From a virus (taxonomy: Duplodnaviria > Caudoviricetes): 64,000 nucleotides of DNA. The stretch covers positions 1 through 64,000 of the IMG/VR virus record IMGVR_UViG_3300037454_000475. The stretch is one strand, 5' to 3'. Below the pieces are notes generated by a model. It was given only the letters and a program-made list of their open reading frames with translations, made no database searches and was not told where the DNA came from. Position numbers and translations under genes: made by a program. Below, piece after piece: positions 1-48,540 of the stretch; the stretch's first letter is position 1; each line of letters starts with the position of its first letter.

Positions 1-68
1 GAACATACCCCGTCATTATCCTCGCGATGGTAAATTACCAACACCTTTTTGACATCAGTGATTTCCAT
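1..68 (-). CDS. DHH-family phosphoesterase, 5' fragment (runs off window)
   Basis: Manual translation MEITDVKKVLVIYHREDNDGVC; YHxxDxDG is DHH motif I. Confidence 0.6.
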   Translation of the reverse strand, partial: MEITDVKKVLVIYHREDNDGVC

Positions 69-79
69 ATATTGTTGAT

Positions 80-1132
80 TTATTTGAAGTTACCAATTTT
101 TCTACGAATATCCAACATCATTTCATCCACAGCAACATAGTCGATATGATCCGGGATGGTGGAATGCTCAACAGCAAACTCCATCTTGGCGATATCACCC
201 ATGGCAATATCCATGAGTTGTTCATACTCGTATGTATGTGCACGAACCTGAAGGAGGAAATCCGCATCAATACCTTGGCGGTTGACCCGGTACGTGTCAC
301 CATTGGCGATCTCCGTGCAGGTACGAACCAACCGGATGCACTCACTCATGTTCTTTGCATCGTACGATTTGTTGAGATTTGACTCATAACGAACCGGGTT
401 ACGTTCCTTCTCCCAAGTCTTTTGGTTTTTATAGTCCTTACAGTGCATGGTATATGCATCTTTGTTGAAAAAGAGCGTACCCACCGATGATAAACCTTTT
501 GGAAGGTTGTTGACGTGGACATCGTTGGCGTTTGGTTTGCAGAAACCACCGGGGTAGATAAATACGGCGTACGCGTCATTGGCGTGGTTGAGTTTGGCCA
601 AAGAGACCATATTTTCTGTCAAATTAAACTCGTTCATCCACTCCGTCATGGGTTTGGTGTCATTACCATAAGTAATGAAGCAGAAATCCAATGGTGTTTT
701 GCGTTCAATGATGGGTTTGTTGATCATCTTATTGAGACCACGAGCCTTGCGGATCTGTGATGCCGCGTAATGACCAAAAGGTTTGAAACATTCCTTGGTA
801 AGGAAACTATCGCGGTTCTCAAAGAAAACGCAGAATACCGGATCGACATACTCCTTAAAACGATCATCAACAAACAATGATTCCAGTACAGTCGGGTTGG
901 AAGTGGTTAGAAGCCGGGTGAACTTGTTAAGTTCCCACATGGTGTCATCGTGGCGGCTATCCGCAAGCTCATCGTGATATACATCCGGAATGACGGACAA
1001 AAGAGCCTCATTATGCATGAGGAACACTCCGCCGTAATCGGTATCCGAACGTTCCGTGGCAATACCATGGCAATGAGATCCACGGATATACCTATAAAGG
1101 GTTCTGCATTGTGTATTGATTGAGCTTTTCAT
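80..1132 (-). CDS. Nucleotidyltransferase (pol-beta superfamily, RlaP/YcgL-like)
   Basis: GSHCHG...SDTDYGGVF motif, ELNKF..LL..SNPTVLE. Confidence 0.8.
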   Translation of the reverse strand: MKSSINTQCRTLYRYIRGSHCHGIATERSDTDYGGVFLMHNEALLSVIPDVYHDELADSRHDDTMWELNKFTRLLTTSNPTVLESLFVDDRFKEYVDPVFCVFFENRDSFLTKECFKPFGHYAASQIRKARGLNKMINKPIIERKTPLDFCFITYGNDTKPMTEWMNEFNLTENMVSLAKLNHANDAYAVFIYPGGFCKPNANDVHVNNLPKGLSSVGTLFFNKDAYTMHCKDYKNQKTWEKERNPVRYESNLNKSYDAKNMSECIRLVRTCTEIANGDTYRVNRQGIDADFLLQVRAHTYEYEQLMDIAMGDIAKMEFAVEHSTIPDHIDYVAVDEMMLDIRRKIGNFK

Positions 1133-1410
1133 TATTGTAATTGTTTTACTGGTCCAATGGCAATTTCTCCGGAAAGATCGCTGGGCACAAAACCTAACGG
1201 ACAGGCATCCTTACTTGCCGGAGCGATATGGAAGCAACCCGAGGTTTCAACCGATGAGTTGTCCTTGTTGAAACGAAGTGCTTCTTCAATTCGGATCTCG
1301 GAGTATACTCCGGTGTTGGTTCCAATTTCCGCACAAATAAATACCGGGCGTCTTTTTGGAACATTGATCCTGTGCTCCTTGCCGTCTTTGTCGAAAAATC
1401 TAATGAACAT
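1132..1410 (-). CDS. Hypothetical protein
   Basis: 92 aa ORF behind a phage promoter; stop overlaps next start. Confidence 0.7.
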   Translation of the reverse strand: MFIRFFDKDGKEHRINVPKRRPVFICAEIGTNTGVYSEIRIEEALRFNKDNSSVETSGCFHIAPASKDACPLGFVPSDLSGEIAIGPVKQLQ

Positions 1411-1465
1411 ATTAATCGATATTTAGGGGGTTAACTGAAGATATATAAACAAAATCCACCGAATA

Positions 1466-2386
1466 TTAACATTGTGAGTTCTTATATCTCATAGAAGCCT
1501 CGATACGTTGACGGATGGCAAACCATGCGCGGTTAAGAAGATTCGGGTAATTCATATATTCGAAACCATAAAGTCCACAGGAGAAAAACTCGTGACATTC
1601 AACGACCCATGTATTACCGCATTTATCCACCATCACATCAAGAGTATAGATATCCGGTGAAAGTGTATATGCATTGATAAATTGGCGAATACGATCCGCT
1701 TTTGGAAATGCAATTGGATCTCCACTATAGCACTCACAACCAATTACCGGGCCGCGTGGATCTTTTTTATCCACAAATACTCGCCACTCGGATACTATAT
1801 CCGGTACCACTGTGGAAACCTGTTTGCCTACGATCTTATCGGCAAAGTTATAGTCAAATACCTTTCCACAAGTCTTTCCGTCCGGCCCGATCCGGGCCTC
1901 CATGGTCATCATGCCATTCCGAGTATCTTTGATGACATCATAGAACTTATTATCCGGATGTTTGATGATATTTGCATCCTTTACATGCCAACGTCCATGA
2001 AGTTTACGTTTCCCGGTAAGTTCTTTTATAAATATCTCCGCACATTCCTTGGATGGGATGTTGAAAATTTGTCGGCCGGAATATAATGTGGGTTGTAACT
2101 CCGCAGGAACATTGAGAGGGATGATGAAGGCATCAGTTCCACCTATAAGTTTTGCAAACGTACATGCAAATTCAACACTACCAACCGGAGTGTATTCATT
2201 TGTTTTGATTTCACCGCTGGTGATCTTCTTGGCGATATATCCGTCCGGTTGGATATCCGCGAGTTGACAAGTTTCAATTTCGTATTTTATACCCCAGCGG
2301 TTACAATCTTCTTGCATATCTGCGAGTACCTTGGAAAAATCATAAAGAAATTTGCCGTGCTCATTGGTTTCAACGAGGAATTTCAT
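1466..2386 (-). CDS. ATP-grasp protein (DUF4343/R2K-like)
   Basis: PVGSVEF, SEWRVFV, YTLDV, VVECHEFFSCGLYG motifs. Confidence 0.75.
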   Translation of the reverse strand: MKFLVETNEHGKFLYDFSKVLADMQEDCNRWGIKYEIETCQLADIQPDGYIAKKITSGEIKTNEYTPVGSVEFACTFAKLIGGTDAFIIPLNVPAELQPTLYSGRQIFNIPSKECAEIFIKELTGKRKLHGRWHVKDANIIKHPDNKFYDVIKDTRNGMMTMEARIGPDGKTCGKVFDYNFADKIVGKQVSTVVPDIVSEWRVFVDKKDPRGPVIGCECYSGDPIAFPKADRIRQFINAYTLSPDIYTLDVMVDKCGNTWVVECHEFFSCGLYGFEYMNYPNLLNRAWFAIRQRIEASMRYKNSQC

Positions 2387-2388
2387 AA

Positions 2389-2727
2389 TTATTGTTTATC
2401 TTTTATTGGTAAGTTGGTTACACGCATGATTTGTCCAAGCCAAAACTTGAAATCCTTGAGGGAATCCACCCAAAAATCATTATCCACCATGTTGTACCCT
2501 TGGAGTTCACATATTGGGACATTATCATTATCAAGTGTGGCTCCGGTACCGAGAGGAGTAATATCAAAATTAGCCAACCGGCTGGGCTCCGTGACATGCT
2601 TACCGTTAACAATCAGTTCCCGGCCGGGAACATGTACCTTTATCCGGAAACATGTATCGTTTTCGTCAGTCGCAATGAATCCCAATGATAAAAGGTAGGC
2701 TTTAATTTCATTATAAAGTTCCGTCAT
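2389..2727 (-). CDS. Hypothetical protein
   Basis: 112 aa ORF tightly packed in operon. Confidence 0.7.
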   Translation of the reverse strand: MTELYNEIKAYLLSLGFIATDENDTCFRIKVHVPGRELIVNGKHVTEPSRLANFDITPLGTGATLDNDNVPICELQGYNMVDNDFWVDSLKDFKFWLGQIMRVTNLPIKDKQ

Positions 2728-2744
2728 ATCGTTTAATTTTTTTG

Positions 2745-2815
2745 AAGTCCTACCGGGATTCGAACCCGGGTCTTATCTTTAGGAGAGATACGTCCTTCCG
2801 CTGAACGATAGGGCT
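2745..2815 (-). tRNA. tRNA-Arg(CCT)
   Basis: Cloverleaf; anticodon arm TATCT-CT CCT AA-AGATA. Confidence 0.85.
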
Positions 2816-2820
2816 TTATG

Positions 2821-2894
2821 TGGCCCCGGTGGGAGTCGAACCCACAACCTACAGATTAGAAGTCTGTTGCTCTATCCAATTGAGCTACGGGGTC
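2821..2894 (-). tRNA. tRNA-Arg(TCT)
   Basis: Cloverleaf; ACAGA-CT TCT AA-TCTGT. Confidence 0.95.
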
Positions 2895-2899
2895 ATTGC

Positions 2900-3388
2900 T
2901 TAAACAGTTTCACCACTTATATCGGCTATTCTTGCATACTGTTCCCGGCGAGCTTGCTGTTCTTTTTCATAATCTTCCACGATCTTTTTGATTTCTTCAT
3001 CCGTAAGGATACGTTCCTTGACCGGGCCGACCATTGGTTTCACATAATACTTTTCAATCTTCCATCGACATGACATGCCGAAACGGCGAGCGGCTTCGTT
3101 GAACATGGCGACCAATTCCTCCGGGCCGTTACAAGACCAAAATTGGGCGCAGTCGGTTTTCTCCTCATCATACGCGAACTTATCGCCGGTGGATACACGG
3201 AAGAATGAATCCGTATTATCCTTTGGATCGAAATCCACACCACTGGTTTCGACATTGAGATACTGGTAACGATCATCGTCATTAGTATCGGAATGTTGGA
3301 TGAATGTGATTTTTTGATCAACAACTCCAATCTCTTCTTTGTCCCGATTTGGGTAGCCGTGATTTACGATATTAACGTCCATATTCAT
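2900..3388 (-). CDS. Hypothetical protein
   Basis: 162 aa ORF. Confidence 0.7.
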   Translation of the reverse strand: MNMDVNIVNHGYPNRDKEEIGVVDQKITFIQHSDTNDDDRYQYLNVETSGVDFDPKDNTDSFFRVSTGDKFAYDEEKTDCAQFWSCNGPEELVAMFNEAARRFGMSCRWKIEKYYVKPMVGPVKERILTDEEIKKIVEDYEKEQQARREQYARIADISGETV

Positions 3389-3481
3389 TAAGTTTGTATT
3401 TGGTTAAATATAAAAAATCCCACCGGAAACTTAACATAGTCGCCGGTGGGATTCTCAAATGGATATAGGCATGCAAGAGAT

Positions 3482-4072
3482 TTACTCGGCGTCTTCCGAT
3501 TTCTTTCTACCTCTCCTTGTTGTGTTTTCGGTTTCAGCGTTGGTGTCATCACCAGCATCACCGGTACCTTGTTCACCTTGTTCGCCTTCGTCATTGGCTG
3601 GTTCGTTGATACCTTGGCCATCTGCAGTTTCTTCAACAACAGTACCGATACCTTCAGCACCTTGGCCACCATCAGGCTCGTTCTCTGCAGGGATTACAGG
3701 ATTCTCGTCAACAACGGCATCCGGATCCTTTGCAGTTTCCTTATTGTCATTGACGGTTTCCGGTTTCGTATCGGCTTTTTCTTCCACCTTCGGGGCAGCA
3801 ACTTTCGGAGCAGCCGGTTTTTCTTCTTTGTGTGTATCAACAAATGTATTGGCCATACGTTTGGCACGAGGATCATTCATGTTTCGATTGAGGTTGTCTT
3901 CGATATCGGCGATCATCTTATAGAAATCGGATATGGATTTATCTTCACCAAGACCACGTTTGATAACTTCATTTACAGCATCAATCTTTTCGAGGACACC
4001 ACGTTCGCTGACCTGCTGGCGCATAAAATCAGCATCCGGGGTTCCAGGGATAAAACGTGCAAAATTTACCAT
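3482..4072 (-). CDS. Hypothetical protein with acidic low-complexity C-terminus
   Basis: 196 aa ORF flanked by terminator hairpins. Confidence 0.75.
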   Translation of the reverse strand: MVNFARFIPGTPDADFMRQQVSERGVLEKIDAVNEVIKRGLGEDKSISDFYKMIADIEDNLNRNMNDPRAKRMANTFVDTHKEEKPAAPKVAAPKVEEKADTKPETVNDNKETAKDPDAVVDENPVIPAENEPDGGQGAEGIGTVVEETADGQGINEPANDEGEQGEQGTGDAGDDTNAETENTTRRGRKKSEDAE

Positions 4073-4178
4073 AGTGTATTAAATTTCTTTTTAAGACTGG
4101 AAAGTCTTTTATAAAAATATAAAACCCGGCAACGATTTTAAGTTTTCACTGCCGGGTTTATTCGGGATGGAAATCAGA

Positions 4179-4613
4179 TCATTCACCCTGAACTCCTTGG
4201 GTACCTTCTGTGCCTTCCGTGCCTTGGGTACCTTCAGTACCTTGGGTACCTTCCGTGCCTTCCGTACCTTGAGTGCCCTGCGTACCTTCTGCACCTTGAG
4301 TACCTTGCGTACCTTGAGTACCTTCCGCACCTTGAGTGCCTTGGGTGCCTTGCGTACCTTGAGTACCTTGAACCATGGCTTTCATCGTATCGAGGTCACC
4401 AATACAATGGGTAACCATACGTTTCACAGCGGCTTCATCGATACCCTCGGGAAGTTCACGGCCAGTGAGATCGCCGTTAATAATATCCACGTATTCGAGA
4501 AGTCCAACAAGACTCAAATAATGACGGCGGAGCGGGGTTTTTGGATCGGTATTCGATTTTCCGAAAATGGAAAGATCAACGTTACCGTTAAGATTGTCAA
4601 ATATTGTATTCAT
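4179..4613 (-). CDS. Protein with shared N-terminal module and G-T-Q/E collagen-like tripeptide tail
   Basis: About 21 G-X-Y repeats; first ~80 aa nearly identical to CDS 4702-5580. Confidence 0.8.
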   Translation of the reverse strand: MNTIFDNLNGNVDLSIFGKSNTDPKTPLRRHYLSLVGLLEYVDIINGDLTGRELPEGIDEAAVKRMVTHCIGDLDTMKAMVQGTQGTQGTQGTQGAEGTQGTQGTQGAEGTQGTQGTEGTEGTQGTEGTQGTEGTEGTQGVQGE

Positions 4614-4701
4614 AACATGTTATTTATTTGCTTACATATCTATAATAAAAAAGGAGGCCTTTTGGGTCTCCTTTTGTAATAATTTGGTTTTATTGAAGGT
4701 T

Positions 4702-5580
4702 TTATACGCGAACCGGACGCACAGAATAACCATAGTAACGGGGAGCATCATTACCCATCCCATGGCCACCATCACCAAAGTAGAAGTTCCAAGCATTGCC
4801 AACATACCCATCATACAAGGAGACCGACCAACAAATACCGTAGTCTCCAACATCGTAGACCCCACCATCTTCAGCGCTACCAACGGCCGGGAAGAACAGG
4901 AACTTGTCAGTATAACCTTCAACCTTTGACGTGAACTTAGCACCTTGAACACCATCAATTTCCGTCCATTCATATTCAGTGTTTGCTATCAATTCCTCGA
5001 ATTGTTCCTTGGTTGGCATCTTCCATCCTTCACCCCATTTATCTATTGCTGCATCGTCTCCGGGCTCCAATACCGTGAGGCCATCGGCGTTGTTGTACTT
5101 TTTCATACCATAATTGGTTTGGTCATCCCAATCAATTGGTCCGAAAGCATAGTCGTTATCTTCACCTTCCCAAGTAAAGTTTTTAGCAGTTCCAACTTGT
5201 TCAGCCGTATATCCTTGGGTTTCACCCCAAGCGAAAAACAACTCATTTCCGTTGGCATCCTTTATGTTTTCGGTTGCCCACAAGGTACCGGATGGCAAGC
5301 CGAGATCGACATATTCGTGTGAGGAACCTCCACCGGCACTCATGGCTTTCATTGTATCGAGATCCCCAATACTATGAATGATCATACCCTTTACGGTTTC
5401 CTCGGTGACACCGTCCGGGAGGTTACGGCCGGTAAGATCACCGTTGAGAATATCCACGTATTCAAGGAGCCCAACAAGACTCAAGTAATGACGGCGGAGT
5501 GAGGTTTTTGGATCAGTATTTGATTTTCCGAAAATGGAAAGATCAACGTTACCGTTAAGATTATCGAATATTGTATTCAT
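4702..5580 (-). CDS. Shared N-terminal module fused to a VDLGLPSG/C-type-lectin-like domain; possible DGR target
   Basis: YVDLGLPSGTLWATEN, W.MPTKEQFEEL, FFPAVG, RYYGYSVRPV. Confidence 0.75.
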   Translation of the reverse strand: MNTIFDNLNGNVDLSIFGKSNTDPKTSLRRHYLSLVGLLEYVDILNGDLTGRNLPDGVTEETVKGMIIHSIGDLDTMKAMSAGGGSSHEYVDLGLPSGTLWATENIKDANGNELFFAWGETQGYTAEQVGTAKNFTWEGEDNDYAFGPIDWDDQTNYGMKKYNNADGLTVLEPGDDAAIDKWGEGWKMPTKEQFEELIANTEYEWTEIDGVQGAKFTSKVEGYTDKFLFFPAVGSAEDGGVYDVGDYGICWSVSLYDGYVGNAWNFYFGDGGHGMGNDAPRYYGYSVRPVRV

Positions 5581-5672
5581 AACATGTTGTTTATTTGCTT
5601 ATATATCTATAATAAAAAAGGAGGCCTTTTGGGTCTCCCTTTGCCAATACACCGATATTCCGTAGGTTAAAT

Positions 5673-6608
5673 CTAAATTGCCCGGATGTCATCCTTATAG
5701 GCTGTCCAACCATTGGCACTCTTGTAGTTTTTGACATGTCTCGACTTCACACGGATGGTGCATTTATTAGGCTTATTACCAAATATGTTCAGGCCCATCA
5801 ACGGAGGTGTGGTTGGTTTGCAGATCAAGTTGGTGAGATTTTCGCAATTTGCAAATGCGAAAGTATCGATCTCCTCGACCGATTCCGGGAGGATCACCGA
5901 AGCAAGGTTTTTGCAACCGTAGAACGTGAGGTGCCCGATGGCGGTAATGACTCCATCGCAGCGGATCACACCATTTTTACCATCAAACGTGTTGGAGATT
6001 GCAACGACACCTTTACCAAAATTACCAACTGTGATATTTACTGGCTTGCCATCATTGGTCGTGTACCAAATCTCATTGCTTGGTTGTTCATCCATGTTAA
6101 GATCATCTACCATGATGACTTTGAGGGTTTTAGGAGTTTCCACAATCCTTGTGGGCTCCACAACAACCTTCTTGGTCTTGATCTTTATGGAAACCGTAGG
6201 CGTTCCGGCATACTTGATCTTCTTGATCATCTCAACGATGATCTTCTCCTGTTCCTTGAGTTCGGTGACATCCTTGCCGGCCTTTTTTCTACTGGAGATT
6301 TTGGCGGCTATATGATGGCGCTCCTTGTTGAGTTCATCAAGGCTCATGCCTTCAAAACCGGTATTTGTTGGTGTGACTTTTTCCACCGCCTCACGACTTT
6401 TACGGATCTTGGTAACTTTGGTGTCCTCAACGGCAACCTTCTTACTCTTGGATTGCTTCTTGGGCTTCACTTCCGGCTCCTCAACCTTACGGCTTTTACG
6501 GGTCTTCGTTGCCTTGGGTTCCTCAACGGCCTTCTTGACCTGTTTTTTGGATTTCTTCTCCGGCTTATCGGTCTTGCCGGGCTTGACCTTCTTGGTATCC
6601 TTTTTCAT
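5673..6608 (-). CDS. Lys-rich N-terminus plus BspA-type leucine-rich repeat (LRR_5) protein
   Basis: ITAIGHLTFYGCKNLASVILPESVEEIDTFAFANCENL; YKSANGW. Confidence 0.75.
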   Translation of the reverse strand: MKKDTKKVKPGKTDKPEKKSKKQVKKAVEEPKATKTRKSRKVEEPEVKPKKQSKSKKVAVEDTKVTKIRKSREAVEKVTPTNTGFEGMSLDELNKERHHIAAKISSRKKAGKDVTELKEQEKIIVEMIKKIKYAGTPTVSIKIKTKKVVVEPTRIVETPKTLKVIMVDDLNMDEQPSNEIWYTTNDGKPVNITVGNFGKGVVAISNTFDGKNGVIRCDGVITAIGHLTFYGCKNLASVILPESVEEIDTFAFANCENLTNLICKPTTPPLMGLNIFGNKPNKCTIRVKSRHVKNYKSANGWTAYKDDIRAI

Positions 6609-6694
6609 ATTACCTCAAATTTGTACCTATATATAAACCAACAAACCGGAATCTTAACAAGACCCCGGCAAGTTGATATGTGAATATGACGGTA

Positions 6695-7651
6695 TTAGCA
6701 AACCAAACCCTCGAACTCCAGCTGGGTAACGTGATGGTTGAAGATCGAATGCGGAATACCTTTGGTGATGACAGCGACCGCATTATGGCTGTGAAGGGAT
6801 TCACGGTGGCTACAAATGATCTTGAAGTCCCGGATGCTCGTGTTGTCGTTTAATACGGTGTACAAACGGCGAATGGCATCTTCAACAAAGATCACATTGG
6901 CACCATTAAGCCATGCGAAATTACCTTCATCGGCACGTTTCACAAACACCTGTGTTTCGGTAGGAATGGCGTGCTTGCACATTTCGAGCAAATCCTCAAT
7001 CCAAACCATATCCTCAAACTCCACGGAAATGTGGGCGATTGAACGTTGGCTATGGGGGATACAGTATACGCCCTCCTGATATGCGTTATACAAGGAAAGC
7101 TCCGTGGAACATGGACATGCACTCGAATAAATGTAGTCAAAATGGATGACCTTCTTGAACTCACCGGTGCGATCGAGGTTGGCATCAAACGTGATGTTGT
7201 AATATTGCCAGCCGCCCTCCGGAGTGCCGTCTTCTTTCTTGGACACCAAGGCATCCTGCCAAATACGGTACTTGAAGTTCATGAGGATATGGGCGTCAAA
7301 TGACTTGAGGTCTTTTTGATAGTTACGCAACACGCCTTCAAGTGCATTGATATCGAACACCTGATCCGCGCTCTTGTAGAATGTACGGATGATGCGGCTC
7401 ATGTTGATGCCACGGTTGACGGAATCAAGGTTGACCGATCCGGAGATGGATGCAGTCACCTCCTGCGTACCTCCACCTTTTTGACGGATACGGATTGGAA
7501 GGTGGAAATCGGAAATACCAACAAAATCAATCGGGACACCCTGGAACTCACCATTCTGTAGGTCAGGCATGTTGTCAAGGTATTCTTGGGTGGGGGTGAA
7601 GCCGGGTGTATACCGGCGTTTTAACTCATTGACTTTTACATCGTTATTCAT
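6695..7651 (-). CDS. folE2: GTP cyclohydrolase IB
   Basis: RGINMSR, YSSACPCS, PHSQRS, VKRADE, FVEDAIR, ESLHSHNA. Confidence 0.92.
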   Translation of the reverse strand: MNNDVKVNELKRRYTPGFTPTQEYLDNMPDLQNGEFQGVPIDFVGISDFHLPIRIRQKGGGTQEVTASISGSVNLDSVNRGINMSRIIRTFYKSADQVFDINALEGVLRNYQKDLKSFDAHILMNFKYRIWQDALVSKKEDGTPEGGWQYYNITFDANLDRTGEFKKVIHFDYIYSSACPCSTELSLYNAYQEGVYCIPHSQRSIAHISVEFEDMVWIEDLLEMCKHAIPTETQVFVKRADEGNFAWLNGANVIFVEDAIRRLYTVLNDNTSIRDFKIICSHRESLHSHNAVAVITKGIPHSIFNHHVTQLEFEGLVC

Positions 7652-7743
7652 ATATAAAATGTTTTTTGAGATTTCTATGTGGTAATATATAAAAAAACCC
7701 CGGACGTTTAATTCCGAGGTTTTTTTATTTGTTGTTTGATGTT

Positions 7744-8271
7744 TTACTTCATTGCATCAGATATGCTGGTTGTTAGTGCACCTTGATGATATGGATATCC
7801 GTCACAATAAACATCCATCAATTTCAAGGCGTCTTTCACATACTTTCCGACCTTTGATATGATATCCTTTTCGGTCTTATATCCGGTTTTTCTCCAACCC
7901 TTACCGTAGTACTCCTTCATCAGGTTATCACCGGATCGCATTGCAAGATACTTCATACGTGGATCGAATGGATTTTCCCCGCTACGATCAAATGGCGATA
8001 GATACATATGCGGCGAAGTATGTAACTCGATCTTGTTGTCATTTAGGATGAATATGAACCTTGCACTATTTTCGACAATCCCATGGGGGTAGTCTTTTTC
8101 GTCCATAAAGTTAATGTATAGGGATACATAATCATGTCCGAATCTACCATCAACGTTTACTGTGACTAATTTGGCTTCCGGCAGCTCTTTTTTAAGCCCA
8201 TCGATGATGGCATCCTTGTCAAGCGTCCAATTCCATTGGGCTTCCATTATATATTCTGCTAACGGTCTCAT
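7744..8271 (-). CDS. Hypothetical, candidate internal head protein
   Basis: N-terminus MRPLAEYIME-A resembles T4 capsid-targeting sequence. Confidence 0.6.
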   Translation of the reverse strand: MRPLAEYIMEAQWNWTLDKDAIIDGLKKELPEAKLVTVNVDGRFGHDYVSLYINFMDEKDYPHGIVENSARFIFILNDNKIELHTSPHMYLSPFDRSGENPFDPRMKYLAMRSGDNLMKEYYGKGWRKTGYKTEKDIISKVGKYVKDALKLMDVYCDGYPYHQGALTTSISDAMK

Positions 8272-8286
8272 ACTGCATTTTTGTTT

Positions 8287-8613
8287 TTACCAATCCTGCC
8301 AGCCCTTATCCATTTCGTCACGGGATACATACTGTGAAGGCTCGTTTTCGTCATTGTTACGGGTGTATTCACGGCAGATTTGATCGGCTTCCGGCATTTC
8401 GTCAAATACAGCCTTGATGAAATTTTCATTGTCATAGCCTTTGTTCTTCTTGATAAGACCTTCGAGCCACTTTTCCTCAAATTCAAGGTAATTGCCGCGG
8501 GCATCCAAGATGGTCATGACCTCATCTCCATTCTCGTCAAATCCGAGATTATAGTAATCCACTTTACGGGCTTCAGCAAGTGATTCGTTAAGATGTTCCT
8601 GTAGTGATTTCAT
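8287..8613 (-). CDS. Hypothetical, candidate internal head protein
   Basis: Start reassigned to MKSLQEHLNE-S after A-rich leader and TATTAT motif. Confidence 0.65.
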   Translation of the reverse strand: MKSLQEHLNESLAEARKVDYYNLGFDENGDEVMTILDARGNYLEFEEKWLEGLIKKNKGYDNENFIKAVFDEMPEADQICREYTRNNDENEPSQYVSRDEMDKGWQDW

Positions 8614-39967: not shown

Positions 39968-40339
39968 TTATACCTCTATATGTAAAGCGCTTTACATTCC
40001 ACCATCCCGCACAACTCTACAAGGAGCGTCTTTAACCTCTCACTCTTTAATTATCGACTTGTGGTTGCCTGCGGTAACTTCTTTGAGTTTGTTACCCTCA
40101 ATGTGTCCTTTTGCGCTTATCAAATTGCATGACACGTATGATAAATTATTTGACCACCCCATCGAGTATCAAACTCAACTTTTTATAACAGATTGGCTAT
40201 CAAGCATCTCGAGCTACTTTTTAGTTCTCTGTAACCTCCTCTTTCCATGGAAGCCGGTTTGGGGGGATGTAAGGCAGGTCAGGGACGACAGGGACACTGA
40301 CGGTTTAAGAGCCTCACGCTCCCCTGAAGTTTGACCTTG

Positions 40340-40414
40340 TCGGATAGGCAGGATTCGAACCTGCGACCTCATGATCCCAAATCACGTGTGCTAACCTGAC
40401 TGCACCACTATCCG
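40340..40414 (-). tRNA. tRNA-Pro(TGG)
   Basis: CGTGA-TT TGG GA-TCATG. Confidence 0.95.
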
Positions 40415-40453
40415 GTACCACCGGCTTTTTCCAGGGAAACCGGTTCGAACCCA

Positions 40454-40955
40454 TACGCAACGTCAAGACGGTACCACCCGGGCGTTGTTAGGGAGGTGAT
40501 TCCTCCTCACCCGATCATTGTGAACCCGTAAGTGGGACTCCTTCTCCCATCAAACAGGTGGCTTGCCGAGTTACCAAGCAACGATCGAATCCTCGGAGCT
40601 CCTTAATACTGGCGAGCTGACCAAAAAGCCCCTTGCTACAGGCGGGCCGACCGACTCAACTTCATGTAACTTTTTCAGGGTGTGAGCGAACCCACAGGTT
40701 TATTTCCAGTCCTGTATCTGTCGATAAGGTTTGGCCGGCCGGATTCAGTTCCGGACTCGCGCTCCTTATCAGTTACGGAAGTTTTGCCCCACCGGCCGAA
40801 TATTCGCGGGAACTGGTGTGCTGCCCCGGCATCTCGGCGGGGATCGTTGTTGCGTTCCGGCGTGTGGTCGGCAGGGCTCGAAAAGGATTATTCGGCATCC
40901 CGTTGGCCAAACTGGAACCTATTTGGTCTGTGGGGGTACCATCACGATCTGCATA
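40454..40955 (-). ncRNA. Large (~500 nt) multi-pseudoknot structured RNA
   Basis: End-to-end helices plus at least 8 long-range complementary pairs, several crossing. Confidence 0.75.
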
Positions 40956-40963
40956 ACCTTTTG

Positions 40964-41035
40964 TGGACACATGTGGGATTCGAACCCCTCCGTCTCCGTG
41001 CAAGGGAGAAGTGCTACCGTTACACTACATGGCCC
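40964..41035 (-). tRNA. tRNA-Ala(TGC), bulged acceptor stem
   Basis: TCTCC-CT TGC AC-GGAGA; G3:U70. Confidence 0.8.
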
Positions 41036-41206
41036 ATTTGAAAAATTGGGTTCTTTTGTCGTCCTCCCGAGGTGTTCCGGAACCTTCATATACCCCTTGG
41101 GATACTGCCCGATTACAGAACTTCGATATACCCACGGCGCCATGGGAACCTGAAGGCTCGTTACGGATCAGGGTTGAACCCAAAACAATCCAAACCGCTT
41201 TTCACG

Positions 41207-48221: not shown

Positions 48222-48540
48222 TAAAAGGTGGGTGAGAACTACGCCCTCACCCGTGGCTGTGCTTCGGTGCCTAACTTTAGGCAGCGATAGCCATTTCAGT
48301 ACGTGCGCCAGTTATTGCGCGGACACCATCTCTTTTGTTCCTTCGGCCGCTGTCAAAACCAAACACCCCCATATGAGAAGGTTTATACGATACCTACAAA
48401 CGTTTGGGGACACCGTATGGCATCGATCCACCACCGATTTTTACGAAATCGGAAACGTCTTTAATTGGCGAAAGAGTGGAGGTGACGGGAGTCGAACCCG
48501 TGTCCAAACGGATTATCTAACAAAATACAAACGATTGTGC
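48222..48540 (-). ncRNA. ssrA: Circularly permuted (two-piece) tmRNA; tag (A)GARTEMAIAA
   Basis: Acceptor piece ending GGACACGGGTTCGACTCCCGTCACCTCCA (48477) precedes GGGGGTGTTTGGTTTTGACAGC (48370); G3:U70; tag ORF 48277-48309. Confidence 0.9.

Follow-up and report, generated by a model that had tools for sequence, protein, structure and literature searches.

A candidate new family of large structured RNA between tRNA genes of ruminant-gut myoviruses

We analyzed a 64,000-nucleotide (nt) stretch of viral DNA (the window), which is the first 64 kb of the 105-kb IMG/VR virus record IMGVR_UViG_3300037454_000475, itself estimated to be ~58% complete. A tail sheath, a head maturation protease, and a Dda-like helicase are encoded in the window, identifying the phage as a myovirus. 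Of the 40 transfer RNA (tRNA) genes in the window, 39 lie on the minus strand between ~35.1 and 50.8 kb, together with a permuted transfer-messenger RNA (tmRNA). Within this array, an element fills the complete gap between tRNA-Ala(UGC) and tRNA-Pro(UGG). A previous inspection of the DNA that used no database searches (the sequence-only reading) had placed an ornate RNA of ~500 nt here, flanked by these two tRNAs. The flanks proved correct, and our results suggest that the element probably specifies a large structured RNA of a new family, stable and acting in trans, that is released from a tRNA polycistron and is similar in context to the phage RNAs ROOL and GOLLD. The locus contains the following features:

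40963-41034, minus strand: tRNA-Ala(UGC), upstream, detected by ARAGORN and by the Rfam tRNA model (33.5 bits); its 3′ end abuts the element
40415-40962, minus strand: the whole inter-tRNA element, 548 nt
40450-40962, minus strand: the likely mature RNA, ~513 nt, with its 3′ end at 40450 after GCGUAUGGG
40339-40414, minus strand: tRNA-Pro(UGG), downstream, detected by ARAGORN; the constant 3′ neighbor across homologs

Positions in the RNA (pos) are given as 40963 minus the window coordinate. The element is present in a single copy in the 105-kb record and interrupts no gene, as both flanking tRNA genes are complete. Its G+C content (0.54-0.55) is similar to that of the tRNAs; neighboring coding DNA is at ~0.40-0.44. 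The absence of a credible open reading frame (ORF), which the sequence-only reading had reported, was borne out, as sense-strand ORFs are at most 76 amino acids long, extend into the tRNAs, and are unconserved. The antisense (plus) strand is open in all three frames (40633-40956, 40682-41041, and 40731-41153), with the result that gene callers placed spurious ORFs there in other assemblies. Scanning for sites revealed nothing promoter-like or terminator-like beside the element on the minus strand. Fourteen studies of the gut of cattle, goat, and sheep contributed 20 public runs that contain the same or near-identical DNA; six of these runs are RNA libraries.

We reached homologs through a protein search with the spurious antisense ORFs, fetching the contigs that encode them; one pattern scan of JGI metagenomes added L016, and two further variants were read out of runs X16 and X20. 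The homologs comprise seven distinct full-length and three partial sequences (L015, L017, and L019) from independent assemblies (ENA, Logan, and JGI) and are 65-96% identical. Identities of full-length homologs are 92% (L011), 91% (L018), 76% (L012), 70% (L016), 69% (L014), and 66% (L020, to which L021 and L022 are identical). Homolog lengths range from 349 to 567 nt. Every copy begins directly 3′ of a tRNA and ends 5-6 nt upstream of tRNA-Pro; the 3′ neighbor is constant, while the 5′ neighbor varies. The last 150 nt are 80% identical per column. Stretches of conserved and variable sequence alternate along the RNA, and invariant blocks persist even where the homologs otherwise share 65-76% identity. 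L016 has a shortened 5′ domain, and L014 has none. Together, the alignments demonstrate strong conservation of the 3′ core, with the 5′ domain being variable and dispensable. Insertions and deletions among the homologs include 1- and 2-nt changes that are not multiples of three, and substitutions track base-pairing rather than codons.

To describe the RNA, we derived a refined fold on a MAFFT alignment (A2), without fitting it to any structure. This fold contains 120 pairs in 22 helices and has two pseudoknots, with 93.2% pairing. Changes on both sides of a pair were found at 38 of the 120 pairs, compared to 15.5 ± 2.5 in shuffled alignments (none of 500 shuffles reached 38) and 1-8 in slid controls. 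For the core alone, 28 of 81 pairs changed on both sides, compared to 11.5 ± 2.1 in shuffles. RNAalifold independently recovered the helices H1, Pe, H2, and H3. In the X16 and X20 variants, which lie outside those alignments, pairing is preserved by nine of the 11 substitutions that hit paired sites, and three H2 pairs change compensatorily; the remaining 16 of 27 substitutions fall at unpaired sites. These comparisons show an RNA conserved in a clade of ruminant-gut myoviruses, with a predicted architecture of ~22 helices and two pseudoknots that is maintained by compensatory substitutions. In the window sequence by itself, the excess of complementarity over chance is modest: there are 11 perfect stems of at least 7 base pairs, compared to 6.1 ± 1.9 in dinucleotide shuffles (one of 60 shuffles reached 11), and the minimum free energy has a z score of -1.5. 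The parts of the refined fold, from 5′ to 3′, are:

40946-40958 (pos 5-8/14-17), minus strand: P1 hairpin, 97% paired; GGUU/GAUC becomes GGUC/GACC in L016 and L020
40894-40940 (pos 23-30/62-69 and 33-37/51-55), minus strand: P2-P3 stem-loop
40786-40877 (pos 86-94/169-177, inner 105-109/150-154 and 121-125/135-139), minus strand: P4 variable arm
40723-40770 (pos 193-199/234-240, tip 209-213/220-224), minus strand: Pa and its tip hairpin
40694-40715 (pos 248-252/265-269), minus strand: Pb hairpin, three of five pairs changed on both sides
pos 46-49 with pos 256-259: PK2 pseudoknot, a loop-loop contact of the P3 apical loop UUCC with the Pb loop GGAA
40665-40693 (pos 270-273/282-285 and 286-287/297-298), minus strand: Pc and Pc2
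40629-40647 (pos 316-319/331-334), minus strand: Pd hairpin with a conserved 11-nt loop
40597-40627 (pos 336-366), minus strand: lineage-specific insertion
40511-40595, minus strand: 3′ core domain, in which the long-range helix H1 encloses Pe and H2
pos 368-371 with pos 393-396 in the Pe loop: PK1 pseudoknot, C-G in six sequences and U-A in three
pos 375-383/444-452: H1, nine pairs, 94% paired, three changed on both sides
pos 384-388/398-402: Pe, all five pairs changed on both sides (GCUUG/CAAGC, AUCCG/CGGAU, GCCUA/UAGGC)
pos 404-409/434-439, tip 414-418/426-430: H2, with the invariant loop GAAGGAK
40492-40506 (pos 457-461/467-471), minus strand: Pg hairpin, GGAGG/CCUCC
40458-40487 (pos 476-482/499-505, inner 484-488/493-497), minus strand: H3 hairpin with loop GUAC, 97.6% paired
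40420-40444 (pos 519-526/536-543), minus strand: H4 hairpin, 5-6 nt before tRNA-Pro, 96% paired, three pairs changed on both sides

In the 5′ domain, P2 reads GGUA/UGCC in the window and GGCG/CGCC in L020, and the one-sided changes that occur in P2-P3 of L011, L018, L015, L017, and X16 all preserve pairing. P4 is a short hairpin in L016, is shortened in L020 and rearranged in L018, and is absent from L014. Its GGAAC/GUUCC becomes GGGGC/GCCCC in L012; the two outermost P4 pairs, which are broken in both X16 and X20, are doubtful. Within Pa, four stem pairs and one tip pair changed on both sides, with GAUAAGG/CCUUAUC becoming GAUGUGG/CCACAUC in L020. The Pa tip is 100% paired and is closed by A-U, G-C, or C-G depending on the homolog, and the Pa internal loop (CGAGUCCGG ... 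CCGGCNGRCCAA) is near-invariant. The two partners of PK2 change together in L016, where one base is deleted on each side and pairing is kept. In L014, which does not have the 5′ domain partner, the Pb loop drifts.

Closer to the 3′ end, Pc is 100% paired, with a single change of U-A to U-G; at the first pair of Pc2, the lineage of the window has U-A and the other homologs have G-C. The CCC/GGG of Pd becomes UCCU/AGGA in L014 and CCCU/AGGG in L016. The insertion that follows Pd is found in the window, L011, L012, L017, and L018, and not in L016, L020, or L014. For Pg, GGAG/CUCC is kept in all homologs, so this hairpin has no covariation evidence; RNAalifold offers an alternative to it, a CCC/GGG closure of pos 470-472 with 511-513. 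H3 includes the invariant UGGUACCGUC. Three H3 pairs changed on both sides, its outer stem CAACG/CGUUG becomes UCGUG/CACGG in L020, and G-U pairs of its inner stem GGGUG/CGUCU become A-U or G-C in L014 and L020. The loop of H4, CCCUGGAAA, is invariant, and this loop motif is unique in the window. One further pairing, of pos 401-407 with 484-490, was considered and discarded, being compensated in L014 and broken in L020.

The covariation upholds the sequence-only reading in its claim that an ornate structured RNA is present and contradicts most of the fold that it drew. All 22 sequence strings that it quoted occur on the minus strand where it had placed them. As a set, however, its 11 helices show no covariation: across 10 homologous sequences, nine pairs changed on both sides, compared to 8.0 ± 1.9 in shuffles, and 195 of 500 shuffles reached this number. 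Four of those nine pairs lie in GATAAGG/CCTTATC, which is Pa. The proposed TTCCAG/CTGGAA pairing also survives, as PK2, having lost one base on each side in L016 with pairing kept. The two helices that were to join the ends have invariant 3′ strands and 5′ strands that change without compensation, and both are broken in L012, L016, and L020. Their nucleotides belong to the covarying P2 and H3, the latter incompatible with both, and L014 retains the 3′ sequence without having any of the 5′ domain. We therefore dropped a closing 5′-3′ helix. P2 replaces the CCCACAG/CTGTGGG and GGTACC helices, the former being broken without compensation in L012, L016, and L020. The same three homologs break TTTGGCC/GGCCAAA and CAACGATC/GATCGTTG, again uncompensated, and the latter is displaced by H1. 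The 12-base-pair crossing helix AACTTC-GTAACT is broken in X16, L012, L016, L018, and L020, and the breaks in L012, L016, and L020 are uncompensated. In general, the unsupported helices clash with the covarying P2, Pb/Pc, H1, and H3. For GCCGAATA/TATTCGGC and GCCGACC/GGTCGGC, the strings are present, and the pairings sort with neither the supported nor the broken helices.

In rumen RNA libraries, the RNA is represented by a piece whose ends fall at the element borders. RNA run X14 contains a 513-nt contig that corresponds to 40440-40951 with zero differences. A contig of RNA run X4 stops at 40450, where Illumina adapter sequence follows immediately, indicating that many fragments ended at this position. 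The DNA run X16 continues past both element borders. Mean depths of the X4 contigs are 413 over the element and 22.8 downstream; as these are one mean per contig, we did not use them as an expression level. The contigs are a moderate hint of a discrete RNA of ~0.5 kb. Release as a discrete RNA, which the sequence-only reading had proposed, fits these contigs and the tRNAs that abut both sides in every homolog.

A model that would accommodate these data begins with co-transcription. Since there is no promoter-like or terminator-like minus-strand site beside it, we infer that the element is co-transcribed within the minus-strand polycistronic tRNA array. Its 5′ end would be freed by 3′ processing of the upstream tRNA, and the downstream cut would be made by RNase P at the 5′ end of tRNA-Pro. 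The 3′ end could then be trimmed back to the structured H3 region, at window position 40450. As this end is just beyond H3, the H4 hairpin would remain in the discarded tRNA-Pro leader. Most speculatively, the mature RNA may accumulate during infection and function in trans as a structural RNA, as has been proposed for ROOL and GOLLD. By the same analogy, its role might be that of a scaffold or assembly linked to tRNAs or ribosomes, rather than that of a messenger or a simple antisense regulator.

Several observations weigh against a stable, trans-acting RNA as we describe it. The homologs amount to ~7 effective sequences, and kinship among them inflates the shuffle statistics. Several helices, namely Pg, Pc, the H2 tip, and the PK2 core, show no variation and are still unproven. 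The H4 hairpin, with its invariant loop, falls outside the apparent mature RNA and adjoins tRNA-Pro, which would suit a role in cis. A third RNA contig, from X20, spans 40403-40842 and thus extends 11 nt into tRNA-Pro. More generally, the RNA evidence consists of assembled metatranscriptome contigs, which give no level, strand, or true ends and could reflect DNA carry-over. Finally, the family is narrow: five IMG/VR pattern scans found nothing beyond the window's own record, and two pattern scans of 185,579 GTDB species genomes found nothing.

We compared the element with known RNA families. Rfam profiles exist for ROOL, GOLLD, and OLE (PMC12286853). The window element has no Rfam 15 match at the gathering score, nor at E ≤ 10 with permissive filters, and the diverged homologs L012, L014, L018, and L020 also have no match within the element at E ≤ 10. 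The RNA is likewise undescribed in the literature that we searched. ROOL RNAs are large and pseudoknotted, average 581 nt, were first found in cow rumen metagenomes, and occur in phage and prophage genomes, where tRNA islands are often adjacent (PMC5737381; PMC12286853). The element is similarly large, structured, and pseudoknotted, and it resides in a rumen phage, inside the 40-tRNA array of a myovirus contig. It differs in being unmatched by the ROOL model in all five sequences and in being limited to one phage clade, whereas ROOL spans several bacterial phyla. The architecture also departs from that of ROOL, as the 22 helices are mostly serial hairpins with one long-range helix (H1) and two pseudoknots. 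GOLLD is a large phage and prophage RNA that is found near tRNA islands; its 3′ region is conserved and its 5′ region variable (PMC5737381; PMC12286853 preprint). The conserved 3′ core of the element, its reducible 5′ domain (shortened in L016, absent in L014), and its location near tRNAs are reminiscent of GOLLD, a resemblance and not homology: GOLLD is often longer than 800 nt, the element is without an Rfam match, and we saw no correspondence of sequence or helices.

The sequence-only reading had left open whether the RNA belongs to ROOL or GOLLD or forms a new class. Membership fails the model test and the architecture differs, while the new class gains support from conservation and covariation; with no Rfam match, novelty stands. 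We consider it very improbable that the element is a highly divergent ROOL or GOLLD member that the Rfam models missed. Such a member could be expected in the rumen, the habitat of the first ROOL RNAs, and in a phage tRNA island, and both the similar size and the GOLLD-like combination of a conserved 3′ and a variable 5′ region agree with the idea. However, permissive filters applied to five diverged sequences gave no match, neither family reaches its gathering score in the window or the related tRNA arrays, and the fold is mostly a row of hairpins plus two pseudoknots. We conclude that the element is best described as a new family of a known kind, the large ornate phage RNAs beside tRNA genes.

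The main rival to a trans-acting RNA is a cis-acting leader of tRNA-Pro, in which the element, or its 3′ part with H4, governs read-through, processing, or folding, perhaps by binding tRNA as a T-box does. That the 3′ neighbor is always tRNA-Pro while the 5′ neighbor varies fits this idea; yet every homolog was found in a collinear array of a related phage, which makes constant synteny weak evidence. The covarying H4, with its invariant loop, is placed 5-6 nt before tRNA-Pro, and its 5′ strand can pair instead with the conserved GAGYCGGU (pos 306-313). This alternative pairing has one compensatory change in L014 but is broken at two pairs in L020. The invariant GGGUGGUACCG near the 3′ end of the element is close to the T-box core motif, the UGGN of which pairs with the tRNA 3′ end. 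A possible second likeness is CCA-A, which amounts to a proline codon followed by a purine and is found in the internal loop of Pa. As in a T-box, the motif is followed by a hairpin with an alternative partner, in a tRNA context. Despite these likenesses, GGGUGGUACCG is paired inside the covarying H3 hairpin rather than exposed in an antiterminator bulge (7 nt in T-boxes), and neither the window nor the four homologs match a T-box model at E ≤ 10. The element also has no Stem I platform and no intrinsic terminator, as neither a terminator-like site nor a U-tract follows H4 on the minus strand. Downstream lies a tRNA gene, where a T-box would precede an aminoacyl-tRNA synthetase or a gene for amino-acid biosynthesis or transport, and 350-570 nt with 22 helices far exceeds what known leaders need. 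We rejected identity as a T-box leader and consider a cis-acting leader of any kind unlikely.

A ribozyme, whether catalyzing its own release or processing tRNAs as RNase P RNA does, is less probable still. The size, the pseudoknots, and the invariant unpaired blocks are typical of large ribozymes, 40 tRNA genes surround the element, and the 3′ end observed at 40450 is away from any tRNA border. RNase P RNA is of similar size (that of the ~320-350-nt form in L014), is pseudoknotted, and has short stretches resembling GAGUCCGG and CGACAGA of the element. However, GAGUCCGG closes a local hairpin and CGAGUCCGG likewise pairs locally, in the Pa tip, rather than in a P4-like long-range helix, and the conserved regions are in the wrong order and topology. 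At E ≤ 10, the window and the four homologs match no model of bacterial or archaeal RNase P, of self-cleaving ribozymes, or of group I and II self-splicing introns, and trimming by an exonuclease that halts at the base of a stable hairpin would also produce such a 3′ end. Identity as RNase P RNA was discarded on account of the missing model match and P4 topology. That the gap is a nonfunctional spacer or a set of decayed tRNA genes, with complementarity due to chance and high G+C, draws on the weak single-sequence signal (z = -1.5; stems only ~2.5 standard deviations above shuffles) and on the finding that most helices of the sequence-only reading were chance matches. The 38 pairs with compensatory changes and the invariant blocks in otherwise diverged homologs make this highly improbable, and no cloverleaf occurs inside 40415-40962, where Rfam tRNA (E ≤ 10) and ARAGORN match the flanking genes only. 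We give hardly any credence to a protein-coding gene on the antisense strand. Its three open frames and the ORFs called over the same stretch elsewhere (P0009-P0018, 93-210 amino acids) are what it has in its favor. These ORFs, however, differ in frame, start, and length among homologs, cross tRNA genes, carry no precomputed Pfam domain, and are disrupted by the 1- and 2-nt indels, and the substitutions follow base-pairing rather than codons. tRNA remnants, introns, and a coding gene on either strand were dropped as candidates.

The favored reading, a new family of trans-acting RNA, would matter for several reasons. Large, intricately folded RNAs of unknown function are rare in bacteria and phages, and each new one has proved informative. 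If the same niche (phage tRNA islands) and habitat (the rumen) house yet another, unrelated family, it would appear that large structural RNAs co-expressed with tRNAs evolve in phages time and again. The element is a compact subject for structural and functional work, and L014, the natural minimal form of the RNA, reduces it to ~320-350 nt. In practical terms, the antisense hypothetical proteins annotated in public assemblies are probably spurious.

ROOL and GOLLD form RNA-only nanocages. Tentatively, and with considerable doubt, we suggest by analogy that the element could be a third, independent class of large tRNA-island phage RNA, functioning during infection either as an assembly made of RNA alone or as a platform on which tRNAs or ribosomes are held. 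Candidate contacts, invariant amid covarying stems, would be GGUACC at the H3 tip, the H2 loop GAAGGAK, and CACCUCC of Pg. The dispensable 5′ domain might dock on the core through PK2, and the self-complementary GGUACC could provide a loop-loop or duplex dimer contact.

The sequences of these segments have features of their own. The H2 loop GAAGGAK (40533-40549 region, minus strand) is Shine-Dalgarno-like, and CACCUCC on the 3′ strand of Pg (40492-40506, minus strand) resembles the 3′ end of 16S ribosomal RNA. Both are invariant in all homologs, so the sequence itself may matter, possibly in contact with the ribosome. The palindrome GGUACC lies within the invariant GGGUGGUACCG (40466-40479, minus strand), in a hairpin rich in G-U pairs, and could be a self-pairing contact. 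Downstream of tRNA-Pro, ACCGGCUUCCAUGGAAAGAG (40240-40262, minus strand) repeats the 5′ half and loop of H4, ACCGGUUUCCCUGGAAAAAG, at 16 of 20 bases, such that tRNA-Pro is flanked by similar sequences; the 12-mer match between the two is, taken alone, at chance level.

On the evidence of its sequence distribution, the RNA family is real but narrow, belonging to one clade of ruminant-gut myoviruses. A covariance model built from 150 positions of the 3′ domain found one copy per phage. No copy was detected by BLAST, nhmmer, or this model in two more distant phage contigs with tRNA arrays, which were found through a neighboring 396-amino-acid protein. BLAST of the element against 50,697 phage records gave no match, and related loci sought via the tail sheath gave none. 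The contig L013 shares tRNA-Ala, with no match to the element in the 303 nt that it holds downstream.

Individual loci differ around the element. L011 comes from an ENA contig of 179,853 nt, which may represent a whole phage genome. L014 (197-607) is without the entire 5′ domain (~190 nt), and its core directly follows a sequence resembling tRNA-Ala, which at 26 bits falls short of the Rfam threshold. In L020, an extra tRNA (2231-2318) separates tRNA-Ala from the element; it scores 37 bits with Rfam, is missed by ARAGORN, and is one of several atypical tRNA-like genes in the related arrays. The first 8,440 nt of L016 (JGI Ga0310786_10013182, 1-8440) are ~99% identical to window positions 31972-40415, the 8.4 kb downstream of the element. 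The L016 element itself is only ~70% identical and 90 nt shorter, and the tRNAs upstream are 88-91% identical. This drop in identity points to a mosaic array in which recombination occurred at or close to the 3′ end of the element.

Other genes of the arrays and the window deserve mention. The permuted, two-piece tmRNA lies at the following positions (Rfam tmRNA_permuted, 61-63 bits):

48277-48524, minus strand, in the window
16383-16617 in L002
5146-5404 in L005

Neither flanking tRNA gene encodes CCA; in each, CAA follows the discriminator base. A nucleotidyltransferase (phrog_388) is encoded at 80-1132 on the minus strand of the window and, given the missing CCA, may be a CCA-adding enzyme. 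The distant related contigs L002 (10146-10215) and L003 (10146-10214) contain a tRNA with a CUA anticodon, labeled Pyl by ARAGORN, which is possibly an amber suppressor and would hint at recoding of TAG in those phages.

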